From assembly GCA_964416365.1 (NCBI GenBank), contig CAYQDO010000001.1, positions 4,050 through 68,049 of the forward strand: 64,000 bases of DNA, read 5' to 3'. The DNA is from an uncultured Muribaculaceae bacterium. GTDB lineage: Bacteria; Bacillota_I; Bacilli_A; RF39; UBA660. Positions 1,840 through 49,123 of the stretch are shown in pieces (position 1 is the first letter of the stretch; every line of letters starts with the position of its first letter). Both the position numbers and the translations under genes were made by a program. The notes below the pieces were generated by a model, which saw only the letters and a list, made by a program, of their open reading frames with translations, did not search any database and had not been told where the DNA came from.

Positions 1840-2784
1840 TTATAAAGTTTTTTTTCTTTGAATATTTAAAGCTTCTTCTACTGAAATTGGAATTAAATCC
1901 ATTTCTTGTTGTTGATATACATAAATATAATCTTTTAAAGATAAATTATTTATACCTCTTGTTAATAATACTTCTAAATCTAAACGACTGATTTTATATA
2001 ACTCTTGCCAACTAACAGTTTCGTCATTCTCTAATATTTTATTATTATCAATATCCATTAATATTGATTTCTTATTTTTAGTAATAATTTGGTACATACT
2101 TGATTCTACAGGATTTAAATCGGACAATTCTTCTTTTGTTAAAAGTTTAATAAAGAAATAATTACGCTTACGCATTTTAAAAACATTTTTACTTACTTCT
2201 TCAAGTTCAACAACCCAAGTGGGATATAATTCTAACATTTCTGAGGTTTGTGGCAACAAATAGTAATCACAACCTAAACGTGATTCAAATAACGCATCAC
2301 GACGTTCGCTAAAACTATCACCAATTATTAAAATACTTTTTTCTGATAAAAATAGGCTTTCTCTATCAACACTACTTGGTAATATACTAATAACATTGTA
2401 GTTTTTTTTATTTAATTTACGAATTAAATCATATTCTAATAGTTGTAAGAACCTTGGCTCAAAGTCTGGCTGTTCTTCATAGTATTTGCCATTTTCTAAT
2501 AAATGAAAAGTTCTGATTTCAATTTTAGTAAAATCAACATTAGCAACTATAGCTGGGTCAACTTCATACAATAATTCTTTATGTTTTGAATTACAATAAC
2601 CGGCATATTCATCAACAGATGTTTTCTTAAACGATCCAATGGTTAAAATAGGTTCTAAAGCTACCGTTTCCCCATCATTTTTAGACTTAATAACGAACTC
2701 GTTATCATATAAAGTAAAGTCTTTTATAAATATTTTTTTAGCATCAGATATTGATATAAAATATCGAGTTGATTTTTCATTCAT
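1840..2784 (-). CDS. hypothetical protein
   Basis: 314-aa ORF co-oriented with the downstream YlbL-like gene, overlapping it by 4 bp. No recognisable motif. Confidence 0.5.
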   Translation of the reverse strand: MNEKSTRYFISISDAKKIFIKDFTLYDNEFVIKSKNDGETVALEPILTIGSFKKTSVDEYAGYCNSKHKELLYEVDPAIVANVDFTKIEIRTFHLLENGKYYEEQPDFEPRFLQLLEYDLIRKLNKKNYNVISILPSSVDRESLFLSEKSILIIGDSFSERRDALFESRLGCDYYLLPQTSEMLELYPTWVVELEEVSKNVFKMRKRNYFFIKLLTKEELSDLNPVESSMYQIITKNKKSILMDIDNNKILENDETVSWQELYKISRLDLEVLLTRGINNLSLKDYIYVYQQQEMDLIPISVEEALNIQRKKTL

Positions 2785-3809
2785 TTTCTCGCCTCCAAAT
2801 TTTCTAATATTTGTAGTGTTTCTTCAAAACTGGATACTCCTCTTATAATTATATCATATTTTTGTTCTTTAGCATACATGACAGCTTCTTGATAATTTTC
2901 ATTAGGAACTATAAAAATATCGGCTTTATTTTTAACAGCTCCTGCTAATTTATATTTTACGCCACCAATTTCTCCTACTGTTCCATCTAGAGCAATCGTT
3001 CCAGTCCCAACTATTTTGTATCCTTTAGTAATATCTTCTTTAACTAAAGCATCATAAATAGCTAAACTTAGTAATAATCCTCCTGAAGGACCACTTTCCG
3101 AGGCTTTCGAATCAATCGTTATTTTAACATCAGAATCTATTTCATAAAATGTTGTAGCCGCTAAACCAATTAAAAGTGTTTCTTCTTCTTGATAGATTTT
3201 TGCACTAGTTTTAATTTCTTTATTTTCTCTTTTAATATCTAATGTTATTTCTTCATTTTCCTTTTTAGTATTAATATATTCTTTTAAAGTTTTAATATCC
3301 TGATAAGTAATATCATCGTATTTTAGAATTTCATCACCAATTTTAATATCTCCTGTACATTTTTCATCAACATAGATGATATAATTTTTAATATTTTTTA
3401 CCGTAAAAGGGGTATTACTAGCTTTGTAAGCTAAATACGTAGCACTGTTAATTGATTCTTCATAATATAGCTTATCTCTTTTCATCGAATCTTGAATTGT
3501 TTCTGAATCATTATAAGTTATATCTTCATTTTTAACCAGTTCCCAACTCGGAACAATTTTAGCAATTAAATAAAAAGGTAGTTTACCTTTAACCATGCCA
3601 ACATAGGCCATATTAAATGAACCCTTAGCTTGATCATTATTAACATTTTCAACATGAATTCTTTTCGTAATATTGATACTTCCACCCGGTTTATAAATAC
3701 TGTAATTTGTTTCAATATTAAAACTTACTAAAAGAATAGTTAAAAATATTAAAAAAGATAAATTGTTTTTAATATATTGTTTAATTTTTTCATAAAGTTT
3801 ATCAGTCAT
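2781..3809 (-). CDS. PDZ domain / Lon-like S16 protease of the YlbL/SepM family
   Basis: N-terminal TM anchor, a PDZ-like middle region, and a C-terminal Lon protease-like segment with the SGPSGGL serine motif. Confidence 0.7.
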   Translation of the reverse strand: MTDKLYEKIKQYIKNNLSFLIFLTILLVSFNIETNYSIYKPGGSINITKRIHVENVNNDQAKGSFNMAYVGMVKGKLPFYLIAKIVPSWELVKNEDITYNDSETIQDSMKRDKLYYEESINSATYLAYKASNTPFTVKNIKNYIIYVDEKCTGDIKIGDEILKYDDITYQDIKTLKEYINTKKENEEITLDIKRENKEIKTSAKIYQEEETLLIGLAATTFYEIDSDVKITIDSKASESGPSGGLLLSLAIYDALVKEDITKGYKIVGTGTIALDGTVGEIGGVKYKLAGAVKNKADIFIVPNENYQEAVMYAKEQKYDIIIRGVSSFEETLQILENLEARK

Positions 3810-3856: not shown

Positions 3857-4738
3857 ATGATAAAGTTCTTAAAAAATGTGTCAATAATTTTACTTATAAT
3901 TTTAACTATCATAAAAAGACCAACAATAACTACCGCAATTATCGAAGCAATTAATATATGGATTACTAATATATTTCCATCTTTATTTCCAATTCTAATA
4001 ATAAGTGATCTAATTATCAGCACTGATCTAATTAATATTATTACTAATATTATCGGACCTTTTTTTTCTAAATTATTTAAAGTTAGTAAATATAGCTCCT
4101 ATGTATTTATAATGAGTCTGTTAAGCGGTTGCCCTAGCAATGCTAAATATACTAAGGATTTATTAGATTATAATTTAATTAGTAAAGAAGAAGCTATTAA
4201 AGTATTATCTATGTCTCTTTTATACAATCCAATATTAATTTTAACTATTACCAGTTATTTAAATAAAGAAGACTCTTGCTTTATCATTATAGCCAATATA
4301 ATAATAAACATAATTATTGGGATTATAAATCGCAAGTTTTATTGTCAAGTTAAACACAATGAAAAAATGTTAAACCGAAATTTTAATCTAATTTCTTCTA
4401 TATCTAAATCTATAGATACATTAATGTTAGTATTAGGCTCTTTAGCATTATTTATTGCTCTATCATCTATTATTCCTTATAGTCATCCTTTGCTAGATGG
4501 AATATTTGAAATAACCAATGGCATTAAAGAAATAGTCTTTATTGAAAACTATAACTATCAACTATTATTTACCGGCATCCTTATGTCTTTTGGGGGCTTC
4601 AGTATTCAAACCCAAATAAAAAGTATTCTAAAAGATTATAACTTAGAATACAGTTTATTTTATAAATCAAGAATTATTCATCTAGCTTTATTTATATTAA
4701 CTTTGTACCTGAAAGTGATATTTAGTATCATTAGTTAA
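3857..4738 (+). CDS. polytopic membrane protein, YlbJ-like (nucleoside-recognition/Gate-domain type)
   Basis: 293 aa and highly hydrophobic. Its position next to the ylbL-like gene mirrors the Bacillus ylbJ-ylbL arrangement. Confidence 0.45.
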   Translation: MIKFLKNVSIILLIILTIIKRPTITTAIIEAINIWITNIFPSLFPILIISDLIISTDLINIITNIIGPFFSKLFKVSKYSSYVFIMSLLSGCPSNAKYTKDLLDYNLISKEEAIKVLSMSLLYNPILILTITSYLNKEDSCFIIIANIIINIIIGIINRKFYCQVKHNEKMLNRNFNLISSISKSIDTLMLVLGSLALFIALSSIIPYSHPLLDGIFEITNGIKEIVFIENYNYQLLFTGILMSFGGFSIQTQIKSILKDYNLEYSLFYKSRIIHLALFILTLYLKVIFSIIS

Positions 4739-5344
4739 ATTCGTAATCTGAAAGTTAATATTTTTCTTATAAACATAGCTTAAATGAATACCAAAATCTT
4801 CGCCATCTTCATTTAAAACCGGTAAATCAATTCTTAAAGAACAATGATCAGTACCACAATTTTGTTTATAGGTTCCATAACCTTCATATAAAAATGGTGT
4901 CTCTCTTAAATATCTCTTACTACCCCTACGATAACCAACAATATTGACTTGTTCAGTATCAGAGTATCCATAAGAATAATATAGTAAATAGCCAATATTT
5001 TCGCTAGTATTTAAAGAATCGTATATCAGCTTTAAGCAATGCCCTTCTCCATTTCGCAGTGAAGAAGATGCAGGTATAACCGATAAAACCGTATCTTTAC
5101 GATCTGGCATCGTCGCGCCATCATTACATGAAGCTATTCCTACTAAACCTAAATCAATAAAATCATTTTCAATTTCTTTAATTATATTAGCTTGATTCAT
5201 AAGTAATGTCGAAGTAATTCTACTTCTTTCATCTTCATTACGGACCGTAATTAAAACCGATATTAAAAATATTAAAATGATTGAAATTAAAGTAACTCCG
5301 ACAATAATTTCCACTAAAGTCATTCCCTTATTATTCTTTATCAT
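4697..5344 (-). CDS. type IV pilin-like minor pilin (pseudopilin) with a prepilin leader
   Basis: N-terminus MIKNNKG|MTLVEIIVGVTLISIIL: Gly at -1, Glu at +5, then a hydrophobic helix, which is the class III signal. Its start ATGA overlaps the ftsW stop. Confidence 0.7.
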   Translation of the reverse strand: MIKNNKGMTLVEIIVGVTLISIILIFLISVLITVRNEDERSRITSTLLMNQANIIKEIENDFIDLGLVGIASCNDGATMPDRKDTVLSVIPASSSLRNGEGHCLKLIYDSLNTSENIGYLLYYSYGYSDTEQVNIVGYRRGSKRYLRETPFLYEGYGTYKQNCGTDHCSLRIDLPVLNEDGEDFGIHLSYVYKKNINFQITNLTNDTKYHFQVQS

Positions 5345-6557: not shown

Positions 6558-6687
6558 CTTTGGTAAATTGCGCTATTCTTTTTTCTAATTTATTACTTCT
6601 TCTAAATTTTAATAAATAATAAGTAGTAAAGACTAATATGAGTACTACAACTAATACTATAATTACAATTATTAGTTTTTCTTTCAT
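6558..6687 (-). CDS. small membrane peptide (~43 aa) translationally coupled to the upstream ParA-like gene
   Basis: The ATG at 6687 overlaps the TAA stop of the 6687..7421 ORF (TAATG), and its RBS AGGAGGAG lies inside the upstream gene's last codons. Translation: MKEKLIIVIIVLVVVLILVFTTYYLLKFRRSNKLEKRIAQFTKD. Confidence 0.4.
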
Positions 6688-7421
6688 TACTCCTCCTTAT
6701 TAATTAAAGACTTCGCAATTAAATTAAATATTTTATAATCAGGCCATTTTTGATTGTTGATAGTTAAAACTTCTCCCTTAAAAGTGGTATTATCGATATC
6801 ATTATAATTAAAACGATTACTAATCGTATAATCAATATTATTTTGTAAAATATTTTTAATATCATATAAAAAATAATATTCTCTATTAAAATGGATACTA
6901 TAATTTAATATAACATTTATATCTTTACAAAACTTCTTTAAATACTCTAAATTAATACGAGAATTTTTTAAATCCAAGGCATCATTAGTAATAATATAAA
7001 ATACTGTATTCATTTTTTTTAGTAAAGATTCATTAAAACTATTTAAGACATGATTAGTATCAAAAAGAATCACATCATAAAGTAAATAAGCTTCTGATAT
7101 AAGTCCATCTATACAAGAAAAAGTTATTTCTTTAGCTTCCTCAATACTATCTGGAGCAGAAAGAAAATCAATGTAATTGTTATATTTAACTATATAATCC
7201 TTTATATCTGGAAACTTTTCTTTACTAAATTCTTTATAATAATCATAAATTGTTTTTCGAGACTTTTTATTTAAAGCTACGGCTATTCCACCATTAAATA
7301 AATCAGTATCTACAATTAAAACCTTTTTCTTTTGATTAGAAATTGTTCCTGCTAAATTTAATATAAAAGTAGTTTTACCAACGCCACCTTTACCTGAAAA
7401 TACACTTGCTACTTTACTCAT
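6687..7421 (-). CDS. ParA/MinD-family P-loop ATPase (CpaE/TadZ-like or MinD-like)
   Basis: Deviant Walker A SGKGGVGKTT near the N-terminus, 244 aa. Confidence 0.65.
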   Translation of the reverse strand: MSKVASVFSGKGGVGKTTFILNLAGTISNQKKKVLIVDTDLFNGGIAVALNKKSRKTIYDYYKEFSKEKFPDIKDYIVKYNNYIDFLSAPDSIEEAKEITFSCIDGLISEAYLLYDVILFDTNHVLNSFNESLLKKMNTVFYIITNDALDLKNSRINLEYLKKFCKDINVILNYSIHFNREYYFLYDIKNILQNNIDYTISNRFNYNDIDNTTFKGEVLTINNQKWPDYKIFNLIAKSLINKEE

Positions 7422-7806
7422 CTTGTACCTCTTTTATTATTATATTTTCACCATCTTTGTGGCCAATAAAATTAACATCACATCGATAATAATTTACTCC
7501 AATTAATTTTCCAAAAAAACTGGTATAAGGATGGCTATTAGAAATTGTTAAATCTCCATCCTCTTCATTATATTGTACGGTTAGTACGTCTGTTGATATT
7601 TTATTTTTTTCAAAAAATTCTTTAATATCCTCATAATAATCATCTTTAGAATATGTTAAAGTATCTTTGATAATTTTCTTAGTAGTTAATTCTACTCTAG
7701 TATTTTGAATAAACATTAGGGCAAAATCAAAGATAAATGCTATAATCAGCATAAAAATTGGAATCAATATAACAAAAATCCATTGATTAACCTTATACTT
7801 ATGCAT
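7414..7806 (-). CDS. small membrane-anchored protein with TadE-like topology
   Basis: 130 aa with an N-terminal hydrophobic helix followed by a soluble domain. A candidate extended -10 (TGATATAAT) and the RBS GGTAGGAAG lie upstream at about 7807-7870. Confidence 0.3.
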   Translation of the reverse strand: MHKYKVNQWIFVILIPIFMLIIAFIFDFALMFIQNTRVELTTKKIIKDTLTYSKDDYYEDIKEFFEKNKISTDVLTVQYNEEDGDLTISNSHPYTSFFGKLIGVNYYRCDVNFIGHKDGENIIIKEVQDE

Positions 7807-7872: not shown

Positions 7873-9519
7873 TTAACTAACCCTAAAAGGATTAGTTAAT
7901 GAACCTTCTCCGGTAACGATAGTCGATGATGAAATATTAATTACTGGTCTTAAATATGTTAATCGATCTATTCGATTACTATATAGTTTTCCACTGTCTC
8001 CTACATAAAAAATATTTGGTAAAAAATCATCATCATACATGACGTAAGATGTCATAGTCCAATTGTATCTATTAATATATAAATAATTATATGAATTATC
8101 TATATCATAAACTAATCCTGCCATCAATGCTTCATCTGCCGTTAATAATCCTACTGGATATATTAATGCGCCATTACCTTTACTCTCATCATTTACCGTA
8201 AAACGATCATTTTTGAAACCACAATGTAGAGTAGGTTTTACAGTATAAAACGATAGTCTAAAATGAGCAGCATATCTAGTATCAATTTCTGCACCATACC
8301 CAGGACCAGTTGCTTCTCCTCCTATTTCACTTTGTAGTTGGCGATCATTACAAAACAAAGTATCAACTATTTCATTTTCAAAAGATTGATTTAATATATT
8401 TGTCTCATACCATGTATCTAATTGTATTTTAGTATTACTTGAAGTTTCATTTCTTACTGCTTCTTCTCTTGACGTTGATGCACTTCCGTTCTCTCCACCA
8501 TACATATAGCCCAAATATTTAACATCATCATTATAATCACTCCAAGAAAATTTATCATAAAGCTTAGGATTTGTTCCAACATCATTCATAGTTTCATATT
8601 GATTGAATTCTTCTTCTGTACCATTATATATTAATCTAATAGAGCCATCACCATTAATACGAATGATTTTCCATTGAAAGCCACCAAATAAAAGATTGTT
8701 ATTTAAATATTCTTTATCTCCACGATAATAATAACTTACTCCATAGTCGTCAACTGTTGCATATAGACCATTTTCTACAGTAGCTACCGATTTTATAAGA
8801 CTTCCTTCTTCACCAGTTTCCGGCAATAAAACATATGTGCTTTGAGAAACAGCTACCTTTGAAAAATCAGGATTACCTTTTGCTCTGATGGTTATTTCTC
8901 CACCATCTTGAGATAATATTTTGTTTTTTAAACAGTTTTCTTCTTTGCATGGATCGACATATGTTTCAACTGTAATATAAGCATTGATTTCTTTTTCTTT
9001 ATCATCATCTTGAATATATGGGGCATTTAAAAAATAAATCTCTAAGGTATAAGTATGAATTTTACTTCCACCCGTTGGTGAAGTAAATATACCATGACCT
9101 AGACTTATTATTTTAGCTCCAGTTCCGATATTATTTAAATTATCGGTATCGGGAATTACAGCTCCATTATTACTAGTGTTCTCACTTATTAATTTATATT
9201 TTATAGCTGATTCACTGAAAGTATTAGATTCTACTACTAGATTAACTTGATAATTCATATCAAAAGGTGTTGTATTATCTCCGGTTATAGTAAATATTTT
9301 AATGCTTACTGGATCATTAGTAGGAATTATGTTATTTACTTTGATATTTGCCCCACCATTATAAGCAATTTTCATTTTACCGCCAGAAATAGTAATCGTA
9401 TCTATTGTTTCAGCATCTTCAAAATTAGCTGTAAAATAAGCATAAGAAATCCCAATTGACACTAATAAAACAATAAAAATTCCTAATAAAATTATAACTG
9501 TTTTTTTAATCATATACAT
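7873..9519 (-). CDS. large secreted protein, paralog A, with a SipW-cognate-type signal and TasA/camelysin-like N-terminal domain, a divergent C-terminal half and a conserved C-terminal tail
   Basis: Signal peptide ...LLVSIGISYA|YFTANFED resembles the TasA GTWA|AFND class. Residues up to about 315 are near-identical to paralog B. The C-terminal tail is LRPVINISSSTIVTGEGSLTNPFRVS. Confidence 0.6.
   Translation of the reverse strand: MYMIKKTVIILLGIFIVLLVSIGISYAYFTANFEDAETIDTITISGGKMKIAYNGGANIKVNNIIPTNDPVSIKIFTITGDNTTPFDMNYQVNLVVESNTFSESAIKYKLISENTSNNGAVIPDTDNLNNIGTGAKIISLGHGIFTSPTGGSKIHTYTLEIYFLNAPYIQDDDKEKEINAYITVETYVDPCKEENCLKNKILSQDGGEITIRAKGNPDFSKVAVSQSTYVLLPETGEEGSLIKSVATVENGLYATVDDYGVSYYYRGDKEYLNNNLLFGGFQWKIIRINGDGSIRLIYNGTEEEFNQYETMNDVGTNPKLYDKFSWSDYNDDVKYLGYMYGGENGSASTSREEAVRNETSSNTKIQLDTWYETNILNQSFENEIVDTLFCNDRQLQSEIGGEATGPGYGAEIDTRYAAHFRLSFYTVKPTLHCGFKNDRFTVNDESKGNGALIYPVGLLTADEALMAGLVYDIDNSYNYLYINRYNWTMTSYVMYDDDFLPNIFYVGDSGKLYSNRIDRLTYLRPVINISSSTIVTGEGSLTNPFRVS
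8649..9449. repeat. copy 1 of an ~800-bp near-identical direct repeat (the 5' coding halves of the two paralogs)
   Basis: Sequence from about 8649 to 9449 recurs almost base-for-base at about 10371 to 11172, an offset of about 1722 bp. Confidence 0.8.
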
Positions 9520-9586
9520 CCCTATTATAAGTCTAGCATTTTTAAATTTTTATTACAATAAAAAAGTTTTGAATTTTAATTCAAAC

Positions 9587-11236
9587 TTAAATTACTCGAA
9601 ATGGATCAGTCGTTGTCCCTGTTCCTGATACTATAGTATCAGAGGTTAGTGAAATACTGGCGCGAACTCCGTTGGAGTAATTCACGGCGTTATTGCCTAA
9701 ATATCCAGGCAAGTAAACAAAGAAAACGTATGCATTGCCACCTGAACTGCCCGGTGATAAAAGCCACCAGTTTTTGCTTGTATATAAATAATTTGTTGTA
9801 TTAGTTTTACCATTCACTAATCCCGCCAAGGCGGCTTCATCAGCAGTTATTAATCCGATTGGATAGGTTAATGCTCCATTTCCTATTGTTGTATCTGCTG
9901 AGGTTGTAAATCGATCATTTTTTAAGCCACATTTTAAAGTTGGAGTTTTATAATCAATTAAACGATAATACGCCGCATAATTTATATATACTCCTGTATT
10001 ACCATGTCCTGGGCCAGTTGCTACGCCTCCTACTTCACTTTCAAGTTGACGATCGTTACAAAATAAGTTATTTACCACTTGTGATTCAAATGATTTATCA
10101 GATATATTTGTTTGATACCAGTTGTCTAAGACAGTTTTGACATTTGTTGATGTTTCATTATATGTTGCAACTACTGAGGTTGTACCATTTCTTACTGTTG
10201 ATGCTACGCCATTTGCTCCGCCATACATATATCCCACATATTTAGCATCATTATTATAAGTAACATTCCAAGCTGATAAATCTATTTGAGTATTTTCACC
10301 AACATCATTCATTGTTTCATTTTGATTAAATTCCTCTTCTGTGCCATTATAAATAAGTCTGATTGAACTATCACCATTAATACGAATGATTTTCCATTGA
10401 AAGCCACCAAATAAAAGATTGTTATTTAAATATTCTTTATCTCCACGATAATAATAACTTACTCCATAGTCGTCAACTGTTGCATATAGACCATTTTCTA
10501 CAGTAGCTACCGATTTTATAAGACTTCCTTCTTCACCAGTTTCCGGCAATAAAACATATGTGCTTTGAGAAACAGCTACCTTTGAAAAATCAGGATTACC
10601 TTTTGCTCTGATGGTTATTTCTCCACCATCTTGAGATAATATTTTGTTTTTTAAACAGTTTTCTTCTTTGCATGGATCGACATATGTTTCAACTGTAATA
10701 TAAGCATTGATTTCTTTTTCTTTATCATCATCTTGAATATATGGGGCATTTAAAAAATAAATCTCTAAGGTATAAGTATGAATTTTACTTCCACCCGTTG
10801 GTGAAGTAAATATACCATGACCTAGACTTATTATTTTAGCTCCAGTTCCGATATTATTTAAATTATCGGTATCGGGAATTACAGCTCCATTATTACTAGT
10901 GTTCTCACTTATTAATTTATATTTTATAGCTGATTCACTGAAAGTATTAGATTCTACTACTAGATTAACTTGATAATTCATATCAAAAGGTGTTGTATTA
11001 TCTCCGGTTATAGTAAATATTTTAATGCTTACTGGATCATTAGTAGGAATTATGTTATTTACTTTGATATTTGCCCCACCATTATAAGCAATTTTCATTT
11101 TACCGCCAGAAATAGTAATCGTATCTATTGTTTCAGCATCTTCAAAATTAGCTGTAAAATAAGCATAAGAAATTGAGATAGATACTATCAGTATTAAAAT
11201 CAAACCTAACAAATATAAAATAATTTTATTTTTCAT
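9587..11236 (-). CDS. large secreted protein, paralog B, with the same N-terminal TasA-like domain, a different C-terminal half and a conserved C-terminal tail
   Basis: The track ORF starts at a TTG at 11281. The likely start is the ATG at 11236 (MKNKIILYLLG...ISYAYFTANFED). The C-terminal tail is GVRASISLTSDTIVSGTGTTTDPFRVI. Confidence 0.6.
   Translation of the reverse strand: MKNKIILYLLGLILILIVSISISYAYFTANFEDAETIDTITISGGKMKIAYNGGANIKVNNIIPTNDPVSIKIFTITGDNTTPFDMNYQVNLVVESNTFSESAIKYKLISENTSNNGAVIPDTDNLNNIGTGAKIISLGHGIFTSPTGGSKIHTYTLEIYFLNAPYIQDDDKEKEINAYITVETYVDPCKEENCLKNKILSQDGGEITIRAKGNPDFSKVAVSQSTYVLLPETGEEGSLIKSVATVENGLYATVDDYGVSYYYRGDKEYLNNNLLFGGFQWKIIRINGDSSIRLIYNGTEEEFNQNETMNDVGENTQIDLSAWNVTYNNDAKYVGYMYGGANGVASTVRNGTTSVVATYNETSTNVKTVLDNWYQTNISDKSFESQVVNNLFCNDRQLESEVGGVATGPGHGNTGVYINYAAYYRLIDYKTPTLKCGLKNDRFTTSADTTIGNGALTYPIGLITADEAALAGLVNGKTNTTNYLYTSKNWWLLSPGSSGGNAYVFFVYLPGYLGNNAVNYSNGVRASISLTSDTIVSGTGTTTDPFRVI
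10371..11172. repeat. copy 2 of the ~800-bp direct repeat
   Basis: Same as above. Identity breaks immediately 5' of ...gcataagaaat and 3' near ...tcaccattaatacg. Confidence 0.8.
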
Positions 11237-11284
11237 ATTTACCACTAGTATAATCATATCATTTTTCAAACTCAAAAACAATAA

Positions 11285-16742: not shown

Positions 16743-17207
16743 TTATGGCGTTGGCGTTGTAAATGATGTTGGGCAAGTATCGTTAATAGTCGTACTTGCT
16801 CCGGAAAAATTCGCTGGAGTTGATAATTTAGCATAAGTATAATCTTTAACACTAAAATATGTATCAGTTAAAGAAACATAAAATGTTGGTTTAAGTTTTG
16901 CATCTATAGTTACGATAACATAACCATGATATTGTGATGATTCACCCATCTCTAAATCGCTTCTTAAACTGTAACAGTATCCGTAAGTTTTTGAACGCTC
17001 ACTAGTTGTACCTAATAATATATCAGCTTGGTATGATTCTTGAGCTTTATTTAGTACTTTTTCGGCATAGATTTTAAATGTGCCTCTTTGAGCATCGCTC
17101 ATAGTGCTCATGACAGAAGGAATGGCAATAATCATAATTATTGCTAGAACAACCATAACTGCTAATAATTCTACGAGGGTAAAACCTTTATTATTTAACC
17201 TTACCAT
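16743..17207 (-). CDS. type IV pilin (ComGC/PilA-like major pilin)
   Basis: From the internal ATG at 17207: MVRLNNKG|FTLVELLAVMVVLAIIMIIAIP, a canonical prepilin leader with Glu at +5, preceded by an AGGAG RBS. Mature protein is about 147 aa. Confidence 0.8.
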   Translation of the reverse strand: MVRLNNKGFTLVELLAVMVVLAIIMIIAIPSVMSTMSDAQRGTFKIYAEKVLNKAQESYQADILLGTTSERSKTYGYCYSLRSDLEMGESSQYHGYVIVTIDAKLKPTFYVSLTDTYFSVKDYTYAKLSTPANFSGASTTINDTCPTSFTTPTP

Positions 17208-17229
17208 ATATACTCCTATCTTCTGCTTT

Positions 17230-17259
17230 ATTATAATTGAATTGACAATTCTTGTCAAT
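17230..17259 (-). promoter_or_regulatory. consensus sigma-A promoter with an overlapping perfect palindrome upstream of the pilin gene
   Basis: On the minus strand: TTGACA, 17 nt, TATAAT. The inverted repeat ATTGACAAgaaTTGTCAAT spans the -35 box and the spacer. Confidence 0.6.
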
Positions 17260-25081: not shown

Positions 25082-26932
25082 TTAGTTATTTATATAATAT
25101 CCTGTATTATATAAATTGCCCTCCCACTCAATTAGAATTAAATTTTTTCCAGTACCTTTCTTTAAATTAACAGAACAATCATTTACTTCGTAAACATAAC
25201 CTTTACCATATTCATCAAGTAAGACAACATTATAATCTTCTTCATAGAACATGATTTTTAATTTATTACCGGATAATTCAAACGGAATTGAGTATAAAAT
25301 AGCCTTTTCAAATTTAGCGGCATAATCTGTTTCTGTATAAGAATCACTTAATTGCTCTGCTGAGAAGCTATTCGGCATTACTTTTTCAAAAGTGTAATCT
25401 TCATCAAATATTGGCATTTTACTTACATAGTTGTAAGTATTAGAAACAGTCATTTTAAATATTTCTTCATCACCTTTTAAAGTAATGATTGTTGAATAGA
25501 AGTCACCTTCATCACTTAAAATGCATTCACTCATATCTGTATGGAATCCTCTGAAATCACGACCAAACATAATAGTTTTTTCATTTTCTTTAGTATAATA
25601 ATCACCAAAAGTGAAACTAAAGAAATTATCTCCATAACGCCAATCTTCAATAATAGTTTTTTTACTAGAATCTATTGTATAATCATTAGCAGTAGATTTT
25701 AAATCAGCTGCTTTAGCGCAAGACCAAGTATTTGTTAAATCCCAACCATTATTCATTAAAGTTAATTTATTATTATTTAATTTAGCATTGAAATTTCCTT
25801 TTGGATAAACAAAATTAGCATCAGTTGATTTTAATAAATATTTATTAAATTTTGCTGAATAGTAATCTGGATTAGCTAAAATCCAATTAATTTTACCATT
25901 CAAATCCATATTAATTAAAGTACTGGAATAATAAATTCCTACTAAAACACTCTCACTTGATTCATCGTAATATAAAGCATTAATATATCCAAAATTATCT
26001 TTTACACTATTCATATGAGCAGAATCTATTTCTGATAACATCGCAAATATATCATATGTCTTTTCTACTTCACCAGTTTTTAGATTGAACTGTATAACCT
26101 TTTCATCTGCTGTAGAATATAAAATTTTATTATTTGGAATTTCTGTATAATTATGAAAATATGGATTTGCTAGTTCATATGAGTTATACACTTTTCCTAA
26201 TAAATCAATTTCCAATAAACCTAAAGCTTTATCTTCCAATGCTTCTGGACTAGCAAGTAATAAATGACCATTTTCTAATCTAGTTAATTGTTTATACACT
26301 TGATTAGTTAATAACCATCTTATTTCACCTTTTTGATCAAAAGCAGCAGCAGTGTGCCCAACTGGTGTTGAAAGGAAGTAAAAATCATTGTCGTTTGCAT
26401 CTAATTTACTAGTAATAATTTCAATATCCGGAAAATAAATTGAATTATATAAACTTGGACTTTCTATCGGAATACTAATCGTGTTATTAGTTCCATCATT
26501 TAATTCTAATATAATTTGATTATTATAGTCCATATATAAACCATAAATAGGAATGTAATGAACAGTTTGTTCTTTAGTATAATAAATCAAATCTTTTCCT
26601 TCGTCTTTACCTTTAACAGTTATTTTAACATTTGTTTTAGTAGACGTTTTAAATCCTACTAACGCAGTAAGCGGAGATATCTCATAAGGATTAACAACAA
26701 TAAGTGGATTAGATATTGTATAATCGCCATTTTCTATTTTAGTTAGAAATTCTGTATCCATATCATCTTGATTAGAAACTAGATTAATATTATTTTTTAA
26801 TAAGTTGTATTCATCAAAGGAATATAGTTTTTCTTTTTGTGAAATTACCTTGTCTTTGAAAATAAAAGCTAAAATGACAGTTATTAAAATAAGAACAACG
26901 GTAACTAGTATCACTAAATTCTTTCTCTTCAT
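25082..26932 (-). CDS. membrane-anchored beta-propeller-like protein, possibly arylsulfotransferase (ASST) family
   Basis: 616 aa, N-terminal signal anchor, repeated beta-rich units and an AHMNSV motif reminiscent of the ASST active-site His. Family assignment is tentative. Confidence 0.35.
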   Translation of the reverse strand: MKRKNLVILVTVVLILITVILAFIFKDKVISQKEKLYSFDEYNLLKNNINLVSNQDDMDTEFLTKIENGDYTISNPLIVVNPYEISPLTALVGFKTSTKTNVKITVKGKDEGKDLIYYTKEQTVHYIPIYGLYMDYNNQIILELNDGTNNTISIPIESPSLYNSIYFPDIEIITSKLDANDNDFYFLSTPVGHTAAAFDQKGEIRWLLTNQVYKQLTRLENGHLLLASPEALEDKALGLLEIDLLGKVYNSYELANPYFHNYTEIPNNKILYSTADEKVIQFNLKTGEVEKTYDIFAMLSEIDSAHMNSVKDNFGYINALYYDESSESVLVGIYYSSTLINMDLNGKINWILANPDYYSAKFNKYLLKSTDANFVYPKGNFNAKLNNNKLTLMNNGWDLTNTWSCAKAADLKSTANDYTIDSSKKTIIEDWRYGDNFFSFTFGDYYTKENEKTIMFGRDFRGFHTDMSECILSDEGDFYSTIITLKGDEEIFKMTVSNTYNYVSKMPIFDEDYTFEKVMPNSFSAEQLSDSYTETDYAAKFEKAILYSIPFELSGNKLKIMFYEEDYNVVLLDEYGKGYVYEVNDCSVNLKKGTGKNLILIEWEGNLYNTGYYINN

Positions 26933-26943
26933 TTTTTCACCCC

Positions 26944-28659
26944 TTATCCTACTCTAAATGGATCAGATGTTGTACCTGTTCCGCCAGTAATTTTCGTGTT
27001 AGAATTTAAAACTATTACCGGTCTAACTCCTGTCTTTTGACCACTATTATCAACTTTAGTAACTCCTCCTGTAGTATACAAGCTATATGCTCCTATAGCT
27101 TCTGCAACATTACCGTTACCGTCAACATATAAAGTAGTATTATAGTGTGGGTATGCCCTTCTGTTAAAACTGCTACTACCTGCTACACTGACACTGCTTG
27201 TAGATAATACTTTTTTACGATAATATGTCCCTAAGCCCCAAGTTGCACCAAAATTTAGATAATTGGAATTACAAGAAAATGTAGAACAATTAGCTATTTT
27301 ACTATAATCAGCATATGACAATAAACCAATTCTACTAGTCATAGTATCGTTTACTGAACTACCATATCCTTTAAGATCATAAGTTGCATTTTTAAGATAA
27401 GTACTATAATTAGCTAGGGTTGTTAAATAAGTATTTAAAAAAGTTAATAAACCATTAGGATTTTGGGTTAACAAATAATATGTATTTTCACTACTCAATC
27501 CATAACCTGAATTACAACAAGATGATGGACTACAATACCATCTTTCAGTATGATTTGAAAATGCATAATTGCCAATAGAAGTATTTAAAATTAAACCAAT
27601 ACTGTTATCTGGATATAGCTTAAATATACGCCAAGTTTTATTGGAATACGAAACATAATTACCTGTTTGCGGTCCTATATAATAACAAGAATTATCAGAT
27701 TGATCAGTACAATTATTATCATCACTAATTACTTGAGCGACATTGTCCATAACTTGATAACTAAATGTAGTTGTTGGAACTGAACCATCACTATTTTGTC
27801 TAGTATAAGTAACTGTTCTTGTAAAAGTACTAGCTGTATTTGTCGCAACACTATCAATTGAATAATCTGCAGTAGATAAATTAGTCGTTTGACCATATCT
27901 GTTTATTCCTTGTACAGTAACAGTTATTGGACTATTAATAACTACTTTAGTAGGAGATACTGTAGCTGTTATTGTAACAATATCGTTCATTGAGGGTGAA
28001 ACTATTAATGATCTATTAAGCTCTTTATTAATAGAACTTTCTGGCAACTTATAAGTATAGGTTATTGTATAAGTTCCTGGTCTTGTAATATCAACATTAC
28101 ATGTCGCACTAAGGATAACTTCATTAATACTTACACTTGTATTTACTGTACCATCAGTATTTACTAATCTTAATGCTGGTGTCCCCCAATCAGATGCATA
28201 ACTAGATATCTGATCACATGCAAAACTTTGATTATAATCAATAATCTTATTTTGAGTTTCCAAATATGACTCAGTTACAGTTTCAGCTGGATAATCAAAT
28301 CTAACTATACCACTTGCATCTAAAGTGGCTTTGACAAAGTCTTCTTCACTAGTTGCTCCAATTTTTTCTCCAGTTTGAGGATTTACTAAATTTTCATCTA
28401 ATAGTCCCTCTTCAATTAAATCGGCAACTTTAATAACCAAATATCCTCGATCAGTTTGTAATTGATTTAAAAGTGTGGTATTACCTGATAAATAAGCATC
28501 AGCCGAACTGACAATTTTATTTATTAAAGTGTCATAGTCTTCATTTTTGTTTTTATCAAAAACCTTATTAAGACCAACACCCACTACTAAACCAATGGCA
28601 ACTAGTATTACTAAGGAAATTACTACTTCAATTAAAGTAAAGCCATTTTTCTTCATCAT
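26944..28659 (-). CDS. giant modular type IV pilin (prepilin leader plus a ~540-aa C-terminal module ending in the conserved tail)
   Basis: Start ATGATGAAG at 28659 follows the RBS AGGAAGGTGAAG. MMKKNG|FTLIEVVISLVILVAIGLVV is a canonical class III signal. The C-terminal tail is GVRPVIVLNSNTKITGGTGTTSDPFRVG. The track ORF extends spuriously to 28800. Confidence 0.75.
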   Translation of the reverse strand: MMKKNGFTLIEVVISLVILVAIGLVVGVGLNKVFDKNKNEDYDTLINKIVSSADAYLSGNTTLLNQLQTDRGYLVIKVADLIEEGLLDENLVNPQTGEKIGATSEEDFVKATLDASGIVRFDYPAETVTESYLETQNKIIDYNQSFACDQISSYASDWGTPALRLVNTDGTVNTSVSINEVILSATCNVDITRPGTYTITYTYKLPESSINKELNRSLIVSPSMNDIVTITATVSPTKVVINSPITVTVQGINRYGQTTNLSTADYSIDSVATNTASTFTRTVTYTRQNSDGSVPTTTFSYQVMDNVAQVISDDNNCTDQSDNSCYYIGPQTGNYVSYSNKTWRIFKLYPDNSIGLILNTSIGNYAFSNHTERWYCSPSSCCNSGYGLSSENTYYLLTQNPNGLLTFLNTYLTTLANYSTYLKNATYDLKGYGSSVNDTMTSRIGLLSYADYSKIANCSTFSCNSNYLNFGATWGLGTYYRKKVLSTSSVSVAGSSSFNRRAYPHYNTTLYVDGNGNVAEAIGAYSLYTTGGVTKVDNSGQKTGVRPVIVLNSNTKITGGTGTTSDPFRVG

Positions 28660-28895
28660 CTTCACCTTCCTATTATTTATATAATACCAAATTTTATTTT
28701 GATAAACAATACATAATAAAAAAATAATGGGATTATTCCATAATTTATGAGCAACTCCACTGTGTTCTATCTTGGGATAAACTTGATAAAGCTGTTGCAC
28801 TTTAATCCATTAAAGACGGCACAAGCTAAATGACTTACATTTACAACATTATACTATATATTAAGTTAATTTATTATATCAATTTTTTTAAACAT

Positions 28896-44434: not shown

Positions 44435-46252
44435 TTATCTTCCTCCCATTCTCGTTTGTGATTCCTTAGAATAATTAGGAGTATTTATCATTTGTTCTTT
44501 ATTATTAGGATTTAAGCCTTGATCTAATAACATTCTTTGAACTCTTAATACACTATTATCAATATCATCAGTTATAATATTGTCCACTTCATTATTAGCA
44601 ACCATTTCTTGATCTTCTTCGGCTATTACTTGATCTGAAATATCGCCTTCATTCATAACTTCATTTCTATCCTCTGGCGATAATGCCGGATCATTAGCTT
44701 TTTCTTTTACTTTTCTATTAAATACTCTAAATACATTTTTTAATGTATTTTGAGCTCGATTACCCATACGCTGTAAAATGGTAGGTTCATTTAAATTTCG
44801 TTTGACATTAGCATATTTAGTATATTCTAGATAAATATATGAAGCAGCTTGATATAGTCCAAGCGGCAATCCAATTCCAGGGATAGCTATTACTTGGGAT
44901 ATAACTGCTATAGTACCAACAGTTCTAAATAATATTCCTAGTTTATCCATATGTAAATTAGCTGGTTTTTGATCTTTGACATATTTACCACGTTTTGTTG
45001 CTGGTTTAATATCATTTTGTTGTTGATCAACTATATTATCTTGAGGTAATGTCTGTTCTGACACAGTAGTAGTTACTGAGTCTTCACTCATTTCTTTATT
45101 TTCTTCTTTTTTGGCTTCTTGATTTTGGTTTAAATCTACCTTTTTAGCATCAAATAATGATGCTTCATATAGATTATCACCCATATTGTTCAATTTATAA
45201 TAAGTTATGCCATCCTTAATTACAACATCAGCAATTTTATATTCTTTATCAAATTCTAAATCTCCTCTAGTGATGTTAGAATTTCTATCTACTCCAGGAC
45301 CACCATTATAAACAACAACATCATCGTATTTTCTAATATCTTCTGGTATTTGTATTGGTTTTGGTAGAGGAGGAATATCTATTTTTGAATCAAATCTTGG
45401 AACACCTTCATTTATTTTAGGAGTAGTCTCTGGTTTAATGTCTTTCTTTACTGAAATATCTATATTATCTTTACGTCTTAGCCCCAATGCCTCTAAAGCA
45501 TTGTTATAATTTTTAGTATTAGATAAAAATTTATTATGATTAGCTTTAAACTCATTACGAGTCTTTAATATATTGTTAAATTCATCTATTAAAGTTTTCT
45601 TGGTTTCAGATGTTAAATCAGACATCATTAAATAATCATAGACACCTTTAAAATCTTGGCCAAGTTTATCTATAAAGTTGGCATCAAAATTTTGATTAAA
45701 TCTATTCTCTTGAGTAGCCGCAACTTTTTTAGCATTTCTGATTGCTTCTACATTAGGACCGTTATATTTTTTTAATAAATCTATTGCTTTTTCCATTTTT
45801 TGTTCAGGAGTTAATGTAGTATTATCATCTAAGGCATCTATAGCCGCTTTTGTCTCAGCTCTAAATGCTTCAGCTTCTGCTACACGATCGACAGCTTGTA
45901 ATATACCTAATTTTCCTTTAATATCATTTAACATTGTTTTGAAACGGGTATCATTTAAATTAAAATGAGAATCTCTAGAAACAATATTAGTTATTTTATC
46001 TAAAAAAACGCGTACGTCCATTCTAAGCTTGATTGTTAGTTCTTCCATATTGCCTAATTTTGCTTCTAAAACTCTTAAATTTTCATACACCTTGATTGGT
46101 TCTAGACTGCCGCGAGCAATCTTTTCAGTTTGTTCTCTAAGAATCTTAAAATTAGTAACAATATAGCCATCTTTTTCAATCGTATTGATAAATTTCAGTA
46201 TTTGATCCATACCTGGATTTTCATTTGATTTATTAATTTCTTCTGTGGTCAT
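44435..46252 (-). CDS. large hypothetical protein with a C-terminal transmembrane hairpin
   Basis: 605 aa, mostly hydrophilic and coiled-coil-like, with one hydrophobic hairpin (LGILFRTVGTIAVISQVIAIPGIGLPLGLY) about 130 aa from the C-terminus. Confidence 0.4.
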   Translation of the reverse strand: MTTEEINKSNENPGMDQILKFINTIEKDGYIVTNFKILREQTEKIARGSLEPIKVYENLRVLEAKLGNMEELTIKLRMDVRVFLDKITNIVSRDSHFNLNDTRFKTMLNDIKGKLGILQAVDRVAEAEAFRAETKAAIDALDDNTTLTPEQKMEKAIDLLKKYNGPNVEAIRNAKKVAATQENRFNQNFDANFIDKLGQDFKGVYDYLMMSDLTSETKKTLIDEFNNILKTRNEFKANHNKFLSNTKNYNNALEALGLRRKDNIDISVKKDIKPETTPKINEGVPRFDSKIDIPPLPKPIQIPEDIRKYDDVVVYNGGPGVDRNSNITRGDLEFDKEYKIADVVIKDGITYYKLNNMGDNLYEASLFDAKKVDLNQNQEAKKEENKEMSEDSVTTTVSEQTLPQDNIVDQQQNDIKPATKRGKYVKDQKPANLHMDKLGILFRTVGTIAVISQVIAIPGIGLPLGLYQAASYIYLEYTKYANVKRNLNEPTILQRMGNRAQNTLKNVFRVFNRKVKEKANDPALSPEDRNEVMNEGDISDQVIAEEDQEMVANNEVDNIITDDIDNSVLRVQRMLLDQGLNPNNKEQMINTPNYSKESQTRMGGR

Positions 46253-48565: not shown

Positions 48566-49123
48566 TTAACTTACGCCGGCTTTTCCATCTACAACTATAT
48601 TTAAATGAATTTCACTACCCAAGGTATCATTGGGTAAATTATATATATCTGGATCAGCAACCCATACTTTTAATTCAAAAGCTTTGGACTGACCAGCTGC
48701 CAAATTACCTTGAAACACTTCCCCATCCGTAATTTCACTCAAAGTTCTAGGACCCGTATTATTAAAATCCACACGAATATAGGCATGATTTAATAACGTT
48801 CTATCCGTATAATCCGGATTGTCAGCTACATAAATTGTATAGCTATAAGGAACTGTACCAGTATTTTGAATAGCAAAAGTATATTCATTATCAGTTAGCA
48901 ATTCAGCTTCTACATCACTCATCGGTTCTATATCTTCGATATTAATGCTCGATCCGCCTGTGAAAGTAATTTGTAAATCACCCACTGTTAAAACCTGAGC
49001 ATTTACGTCTGTTTCAATATCCATAAACAAAGCATAGGAAGAACCCAAGATTGTAATTACCATAACCATAACAGTTATAGCAGAAATAATAAAACGCTTT
49101 CTTAATTGATTCCTTATATACAT
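48566..49123 (-). CDS. TasA/camelysin (peptidase M73)-family secreted protein with a SipW-cognate-type signal
   Basis: ...ITILGSSYA|LFMDIETDVNAQVLTVGDLQITF...IEPMSD...FAIQNTGT aligns with TasA GTWA|AFNDIKS...GTLDL...LKPGD...FQFENNGS. Confidence 0.6.
   Translation of the reverse strand: MYIRNQLRKRFIISAITVMVMVITILGSSYALFMDIETDVNAQVLTVGDLQITFTGGSSINIEDIEPMSDVEAELLTDNEYTFAIQNTGTVPYSYTIYVADNPDYTDRTLLNHAYIRVDFNNTGPRTLSEITDGEVFQGNLAAGQSKAFELKVWVADPDIYNLPNDTLGSEIHLNIVVDGKAGVS

Follow-up and report, generated by a model that had tools for sequence, protein, structure and literature searches.

Two adjoining minus-strand genes, gene A and gene B, were analysed in a 64-kb stretch of contig CAYQDO010000001.1 (27.5% GC; hereafter the window). 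The locus has the features of a real and old tandem duplication, and the two copies share an exact direct repeat of 804 bp. The best reading of this repeat is that the old pair of paralogues underwent a recent gene conversion; a related non-reciprocal recombination would also fit. Taking all the evidence together, we favour, with moderate confidence, an account in which A and B would be old tandem exported paralogues, each built from a TasA-like scaffold and a lectin-like head, whose scaffold half was recently converted.

An exact repeat within an old tandem pair

Gene B (9587..11236; all features of the window given here and below lie on the minus strand) encodes 549 aa from an ATG at 11236, and its open reading frame (ORF) extends to a TTG at 11281. 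Gene A (7873..9519), the second copy of the pair, has retained the ancestral flank on its downstream side. It encodes 548 aa, and its probable true start is the ATG at 9513, which is favoured by alignment with the orthologue and gives 546 aa. The genes are separated by a junction of 67 nt (9520..9586). A scan at offset 1723 found 804 bp without a mismatch between gene B (copy 1, 10370..11173, codons 22-289) and gene A (copy 2, 8647..9450), and this run was bounded at each end by immediate mismatches. The 919 bp that separate the repeat copies are made up of the C-terminal part of B, the junction and the signal peptide of A. Self-comparison of the window by BLAST and pairwise alignment, which had been proposed in a first-pass annotation of this DNA, recovered the tract as the sole long repeat of the window. 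That annotation had placed a near-identical stretch of about 800 bp at 8649..9449 and 10371..11172, which was essentially right.

The A and B proteins are 76% identical overall and 100% identical over B residues 22-289, and the first 265 residues of the mature proteins are the same. The signal peptide of B (11162..11236), read from the sequence, consists of MKNK, a hydrophobic helix and S-Y-A, and its predicted cleavage, SYA↓YFTANFED, obeys the -3/-1 rule. The signal peptide of A (9439..9519) has diverged from it, the two being 44% identical. The signal peptide is followed in B by an N-terminal beta-sandwich domain (10667..11161, residues 26-190; identical copy in A at 8944..9438) and a C-terminal module (9590..10654, residues 195-549; equivalent in A at 7876..8931). 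The first-pass annotation had equated the identical part with the N-terminal domain. The tract reaches further, ~95 residues into the C-terminal module, and it stops inside the most conserved motif of that module, QWKIIRINGD. The claim that the C-terminal halves keep only a common tail motif was wrong, as the last 260 residues of A and B are alignable over their full length with ~54% amino acid identity.

Synonymous divergence (dS, Nei-Gojobori method) was 0 over the 170 synonymous sites inside the tract. Outside it, dS was ~3.3 in the signal-peptide codons and ~1.3 in the C-terminal part, and it was saturated in codons 481-549. Since the flanks of the tract differ by ~35% at the DNA level, 804 identical bases cannot be attributed to chance, and the dS of 0 rules out that purifying selection produced them. 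As dS is 0 in the tract and exceeds 1 to either side, recent gene conversion between old paralogues explains the data best. The homogenisation by gene conversion that the first-pass annotation had claimed was thus supported for the 5′ region of the old paralogues, where the borders are sharp.

Both ends of the tract fall in DNA motifs that are conserved across the window organism and a sister species, the 5′ one in TCTTATGCTTATTTTACAGC (SYAYFTA) and the 3′ one in the QWKIIRINGD region. The position of the ends in the best-conserved motifs fits a homologous-recombination intermediate that was resolved where homology was best. We suggest that 804 bp of one copy were recently replaced by the sequence of the other through non-reciprocal homologous recombination (gene conversion), in which case the SYAYFTA and QWKIIRINGD DNA motifs would have supplied the homology needed. 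The outcome would be a pair of proteins whose mature chains begin with the same 265 residues and whose heads differ most in a loop at residues 481-520. Because of the identical tract, the locus should also readily change in copy number through unequal crossing-over. Gene conversion is known to drive concerted evolution of tandem surface-protein paralogues. The A/B pair resembles such cases in being tandem direct repeats, in having an identical internal tract amid old divergence and in the location of the tract ends in conserved motifs. Unlike in the usual case, the converted part is the constant scaffold and not the variable part, and there was no sign of repeated or programmed events.

Some observations count against this reading. 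A single recombination with an imported paralogue is an alternative to classic conversion. The search of 5.8 billion proteins found no relative of the C-terminal part of A above 58% identity, so import from a known lineage is not demonstrable. The assembly consensus may overstate the perfect identity slightly, and at most it would have raised ~98-99% to 100%, so the step relative to the ~65% identical flanks would stay. The ratio of nonsynonymous to synonymous divergence (dN/dS) was ~0.25 in the C-terminal part, giving no sign of rapid or positively selected diversification. The corresponding protein of the sister species had 3 variable positions (322, 340 and 442) among the 5 sequences of its cluster.

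This sister species, from biogas-fermenter metagenomes, carries a syntenic locus with one gene X (550 aa, P0007). The order is PBP2, L33, EF-P, gene X, a 130-aa TadE-like gene, a ParA-like gene, FtsW and a 215-aa prepilin-like gene. The single-copy form was present in ~12 independent assemblies, and in the sister-species loci L018-L021 and L029-L032 a lone gene stands between EF-P and the 130-aa gene. A variant downstream gene of 112 aa in L022, L023 and L033 proved to be this TadE-like gene, with its start called elsewhere. Proteins encoded by the neighbouring genes are 82-93% identical between the window and the sister species. P0007 and B are 63% identical overall (76% in the N part and 34-70% in segments of the C part), so this gene evolves much faster than its surroundings. 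Gene B is the positional orthologue of P0007, with the upstream region in common and signal peptides that are 74% identical, and the downstream region of gene A matches that of the single-copy sister locus. On our account the copies would be old, as indicated by a dS above 1 outside the tract, with B retaining the ancestral 5′ flank and A the ancestral 3′ flank. The junction consists of a short AT-only hairpin and a T-run after the stop codon of B, followed by a diverged ~55-nt copy of the upstream (promoter and ribosome-binding site) region of B, and nothing corresponds to it at the single-copy locus of the sister species. A promoter scan of this AT-rich DNA found 40 sites against 33.6 expected from shuffled sequence, which was no better than shuffled.

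Assembly error, by joining of two strain alleles or by collapse of near-identical repeats to one consensus, is a very improbable explanation of the pattern. The source is a contig of a metagenome-assembled genome (MAG), and A and B are singletons, each with one occurrence, on a single contig, in 15 billion proteins. Strain variants of the locus were looked for in metagenome contigs: a 26-mer from the tract had no matches, and a 29-mer from the conserved 3′ end of EF-P matched one contig, which ended short of the locus and gave no strain variant. Although short reads hardly span an exact repeat of 804 bp, the intervening 919 bp can exist only between two tract copies, which argues against a chimera. 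The junction, a gene end joined to a diverged promoter copy, is not a product expected of an assembler, and both flanks match the independently assembled single-copy sister locus. Collapse of the repeats would leave the step to the flanks in place, as noted above.

The same pattern was also found in an unrelated assembly, which is further evidence against an artefact. In L024 (a Bacilli MAG, GCA_028703035.1), the slot after FtsW is filled by two tandem genes, P0055 and P0054 (2675..6241). In the window this slot holds a 215-aa prepilin-like ORF (4697..5344), which overlaps the FtsW stop codon. The first ~215 residues of P0055 and P0054 are an orthologue of the 215-aa prepilin-like protein of the window (50% identity over its whole length), and the remainder is a B-type C-terminal module with 55% identity to B residues 195-549. 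P0055 and P0054 share 652 bp with one mismatch (2672..3323 and 4577..5228), beyond which their identity drops to 75-87%. An identical scaffold half with a divergent head thus recurs in a separate assembly and on a different scaffold.

The N-terminal domain and its possible relation to TasA

The TasA/camelysin/BsaA proteins (PF12389, IPR022121; archaeal homologue AbpA) form donor-strand-exchange matrix fibres in Firmicutes. The first-pass annotation had proposed that the N-terminal domain of A and B resembles this fold. As in TasA, a hydrophobic helix is followed by an A↓xF-type motif (the mature start of TasA is AFNDIK, PDB 8aur), and a predicted beta-sandwich of ~165 aa comes straight after the signal peptide. 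Several paralogues per genome are a further feature in common with the TasA family.

The resemblance was supported in part, at the level of relatives. The window encodes a stand-alone secreted protein of 185 aa (48566..49123) with an SSYALF-type N-terminus and no SipW-like gene adjoining. It passes the gathering score of PF12389 (Peptidase_M73) with 24.2 against 22.5 bits. A profile of the A/B N-terminal domain matched it in hhalign with 97% probability (E 4.7e-11), and with 93.7% (E 1.8e-7, 105 columns) when the signal peptide was left out. The 185-aa protein is ~19% identical to the A/B domain over the aligned columns, and it is a candidate for the plain subunit of an A/B-type structure. Among 118 close relatives with the N-terminal domain, 14 matched Peptidase_M73 at E<=0.01 or E<=0.001, these being 11 of 57 short and 3 of 61 long proteins. 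Homology to the 185-aa protein and to these relatives is the reason why we treat the domain as a divergent relative of the camelysin/TasA superfamily on sequence grounds, with A and B themselves falling below its models.

An exhaustive profile search recovered 4,322 cluster representatives with the N-terminal domain, which always stood directly after an N-terminus of ~25-30 aa. Searching a collection of 5.8 billion proteins with a profile of the mature domain gave 16 matches only, and the search of representatives was more informative. Many of the proteins are stand-alone versions of 185-200 aa, and those of 192 and 193 aa are complete genes internal to contigs. The longer proteins carry DUF285, Flg_new, LRR_5, RCC1, fn3, lectin or DUF6273 domains. 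In L034 (3..1685), a stand-alone gene of 192 aa adjoins a gene in which the domain is C-terminal (27% identity to B, E 9e-7), an arrangement which indicates that clusters of N-domain paralogues exist.

In the full-length monomer model, residues 25-45 of B, where the mature protein starts, had predicted local distance difference test scores (pLDDT) below 50, as would be expected of a donor strand, and across the family their conservation exceeds that of the signal peptide. These are only hints, and they are compatible with the N-terminal strand of mature A and B (YFTANFEDAETIDTITI) acting as a proposed donor strand.

Direct comparisons spoke less for TasA. Neither A nor B matched PF12389, even at E<=1, or TIGR04088. 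Among 39 relatives there were three weak TIGR04088 matches (best E 0.028), and one homologue has been named 'SipW-like signal peptide' by the Joint Genome Institute. No SipW-like gene was found in the window by a scan for the signal-peptidase serine-box motif, a weak test confined to the window, and the inspected neighbourhoods of family members had no conserved partner or TapA-like gene beside them. Together with the absence of matches in A and B, these results count against a TasA-type role. In addition, hhalign against the single sequence of Bacillus subtilis TasA (checked against PDB chain 8aur) was not significant (E 0.035-0.06), and a fold comparison of the domain with TasA was unspecific. 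Foldseek against the PDB returned weak jelly-roll or carbohydrate-binding-module-like matches and nothing stronger, and PDB chains searched by sequence with B and with the family profile yielded nothing relevant. Unlike TasA, CalY and BsaA, A and B have a C-terminal domain of 350 aa, and unlike TasA they lack a tapA-sipW-tasA-type operon.

The missing matches and the missing SipW- and TapA-like neighbours would suit a different explanation, which we consider possible and clearly the less probable one. The conversion would be real, but A and B would be monomeric lectin-like adhesins, secreted or tethered to the membrane, in which the N-terminal domain is a stalk or spacer and the identical tract a neutral by-product of recombination between the tandem repeats that plays no part in co-assembly. 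The scattering of family members singly amid housekeeping genes is also in its favour. However, a stalk fits poorly with the homology of the domain to proteins that pass the Peptidase_M73 model, and with the first ~20 mature residues being better conserved than the signal peptide and modelled with low confidence in the full-length monomer. Stand-alone genes of TasA size for this domain are abundant, and the C-terminal module is otherwise borne by a type IV pilin, a scaffold that polymerises as well.

The C-terminal module and the modular family

The C-terminal module of B is DUF6273-like. PF19789 (DUF6273) matched B with an E of 1.2e-4 and 22.4 bits, which is below the cut-off of 23.5, and the alignment pairs residues 479-531 with positions 119-171, at the C-terminal end of the profile. 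There was no PF19789 match in A. The same model matched 10 of 39 relatives at E<=1, and several homologues carry PF19789 in precomputed annotation. The fold predicted for the module was like that of a solved DUF6273 domain. Invariant features of the module are C393, C436, QWKIxRxNG, a GTGxxxDPFRV tail and many aromatic and Gly/Asn positions, and there was no His-based metal site among the invariant residues. The most variable stretch of the whole family lies at 9677..9796 (B residues 481-520), in overlap with the part of B aligned to the C-terminal end of the DUF6273 profile. Of its 40 positions, 30 differ between A and B, and family entropy peaks at residues 501-520.

DUF6273 has been described as a C-type-lectin-like variable ligand-binding head that is a target of diversity-generating retroelements (DGRs) in phage receptor-binding proteins (PMC10743442), while elsewhere its function has been given as unknown (PMC12402451). 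Among the known examples, one stands at the N-terminus of the Thomasclavelia ramosa IgA peptidase (PDB 9qa6), and others are the heads of phage 'tentaclins' that DGRs target. We infer that the A/B module is a putative ligand-binding head and its most variable part a putative specificity loop. Unlike known DUF6273 domains, the A/B module is longer (~350 aa, including lineage-specific insertions), has no sequence match among PDB chains, is attached to neither a peptidase nor a phage tail, and is not associated with a DGR in the window. An insertion of ~24 residues (AVSQSTYVLLPETGEEGSLI...; B residues 221-244, ~10505..10576, and the same residues of A) is present in A, B and P0007 and is missing from P0054 and from ~90% of family members.

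Programmed variation of the head is a remote alternative, whether by cassette switching of the pilE/pilS or vsp type or by DGR mutagenesis. It would be suggested by the known targeting of DUF6273 domains by DGRs, by the location of the variable stretch at the C-terminal end of the domain, and by the long identical tract, which could be used as a recombination anchor. However, a template and variable repeat pair would need a second repeat, and self-BLAST of the window found none. No reverse transcriptase was present among the annotated genes of the window, although not every ORF was scanned. Both copies are complete, each with its own start and upstream region, so that neither is a silent cassette. 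Accordingly, DGR and silent-cassette systems were rejected on the grounds of there being no further repeat in the window and both genes being complete. The near-invariance of the sister-species protein and the lack of a close relative of A's C-terminal part (above) also speak against programmed variation. The first-pass annotation had envisaged swappable tips; as active switching this was not supported, since the sister species has a single copy in ~12 assemblies and the few variable positions already mentioned.

Searching with gene B returned more than 1,500 homologues, all of them without names. Nearly all were from 'Bacilli bacterium' or 'Mollicutes bacterium' MAGs or from gut 'Tenericutes' and 'Mycoplasma sp. 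CAG:776' assemblies. The family is found in digesters and guts, in uncultured low-GC Bacilli and 'Mollicutes' MAGs, with several paralogues per genome placed singly amid housekeeping genes. Its members start with a hydrophobic helix followed by [ST][YF]A[YFIL][FW], and they are made of module 1 (residues ~26-190) and module 2 (residues ~195-549). Module 2 occurs singly or, in proteins of 780-870 aa, as a tandem double, and in P0054, P0055, P0074 and P0112 it follows a type IV prepilin N-terminus. These four fusions carry the PF07963 prepilin motif (N_methyl), as do three genes of the window other than A and B. A and B had no match to PF07963 in Pfam, and no match in NCBIfam.

Similarity to B in the N and C parts was 76% and 52% in P0007, 40% and 69% in P0016, and 17% and 59% in P0065. 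The two are thus uncoupled across the family, which supports modularity, and the C part of B is nearer to modules of other genomes (65-69%) than to that of A. The build from a constant domain and a variable module that had been claimed for the pair was borne out in this respect, both by the prepilin fusions and by the uncoupled similarities.

A proposed surface structure and other genes of the window

We propose that A and B would be tandem members of a large multi-copy family of exported surface proteins with three parts. The first would be a Sec-type signal peptide ending in the conserved motif [ST][YF]A↓[YF]F, the second a beta-sandwich of ~165 aa in or next to the camelysin/TasA (Peptidase_M73) superfamily, and the third a DUF6273-like domain of ~350 aa that is likely to be a ligand-binding head. 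The N-terminal domain may polymerise or dock by TasA-style donor-strand exchange, with the stand-alone proteins perhaps acting as major subunits. Both paralogues could then enter one surface structure and present different binding specificities, and conversion would keep them compatible.

The same two-part logic is known from TapA and AbpB minor subunits and FimH tip adhesins, which combine a polymerisation module with a distal binding domain, and for A and B it is a proposed arrangement. A distal domain has been proposed as an adhesin beside a fibre-compatible N-terminal part (PMC9245690). As in the TapA and FimH systems, stand-alone proteins that are possible major subunits occur in the window and in relatives, although the likeness is limited by the low identity (~19%) between the 185-aa protein of the window and the A/B domain.

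A more far-reaching possibility, which we put forward tentatively and regard as rather unlikely, is an undescribed Gram-positive adhesive filament. It would consist of TasA-type donor-strand fibres of stand-alone ~190-aa subunits and of paralogues with interchangeable heads, whose ability to co-polymerise would be kept by conversion of the scaffold-coding part as the heads diverge. The heads would be DUF6273-like, DUF285, LRR, RCC1 and lectin domains, and the same heads would also be borne by type IV pilins at neighbouring loci. If true, this would be a modular surface system with one scaffold and many heads in uncultured Bacilli and Mollicutes-like bacteria.

By sequence similarity, one type of head is borne by two polymerising scaffolds that are unrelated to each other, one TasA-like and the other a type IV pilin. 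TasA-superfamily scaffolds, DUF6273-type heads and gene conversion of tandem paralogues are all known in kind. The literature searched held no description of the combination of a TasA-type scaffold, a DUF6273-type head and conversion of the scaffold half. The family is large and without any named function, and the 4,322 representatives of its N-terminal domain bear many different C-terminal binding domains. The shared head on two scaffolds and the homogenisation of the scaffold half alone in both provide a hypothesis for how surface adhesins are built and diversified in uncultured, often wall-reduced Bacilli from digesters and guts. If correct, it would also give a cellular context to DUF6273, known from a gut IgA protease and from phage receptor-binding proteins.

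Directly downstream of gene A (6687..7806) are genes for a 130-aa TadE-like protein, with a sub-threshold Pfam match, and a ParA/AAA_31 ATPase. This pair is kept in the sister species, and no further Tad pilus genes adjoin it. A type IV prepilin-like protein of ~570 aa, with the N_methyl motif and immunoglobulin-like repeats, is encoded at 26944..28662. Its C-terminus (W-R-I-F ... GVRPVIVL ... GGTGTTSDPFRVG) weakly resembles the start of the A/B head and its tail (BLAST E 0.03-0.05). An arylsulfotransferase-family gene (25082..26932) lies downstream of it. No pilus assembly ATPase was found among the annotated ORFs of the window. A third prepilin-type gene, of 171 aa and with a clear N_methyl motif, was found at 16743..17258 amid housekeeping genes. 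Finally, an ORF of 605 aa at 44435..46252, with no Pfam match and with a predicted C-terminal membrane segment, sits between a gene for a DUF2079 membrane protein and a tryptophanyl-tRNA-synthetase-like gene.

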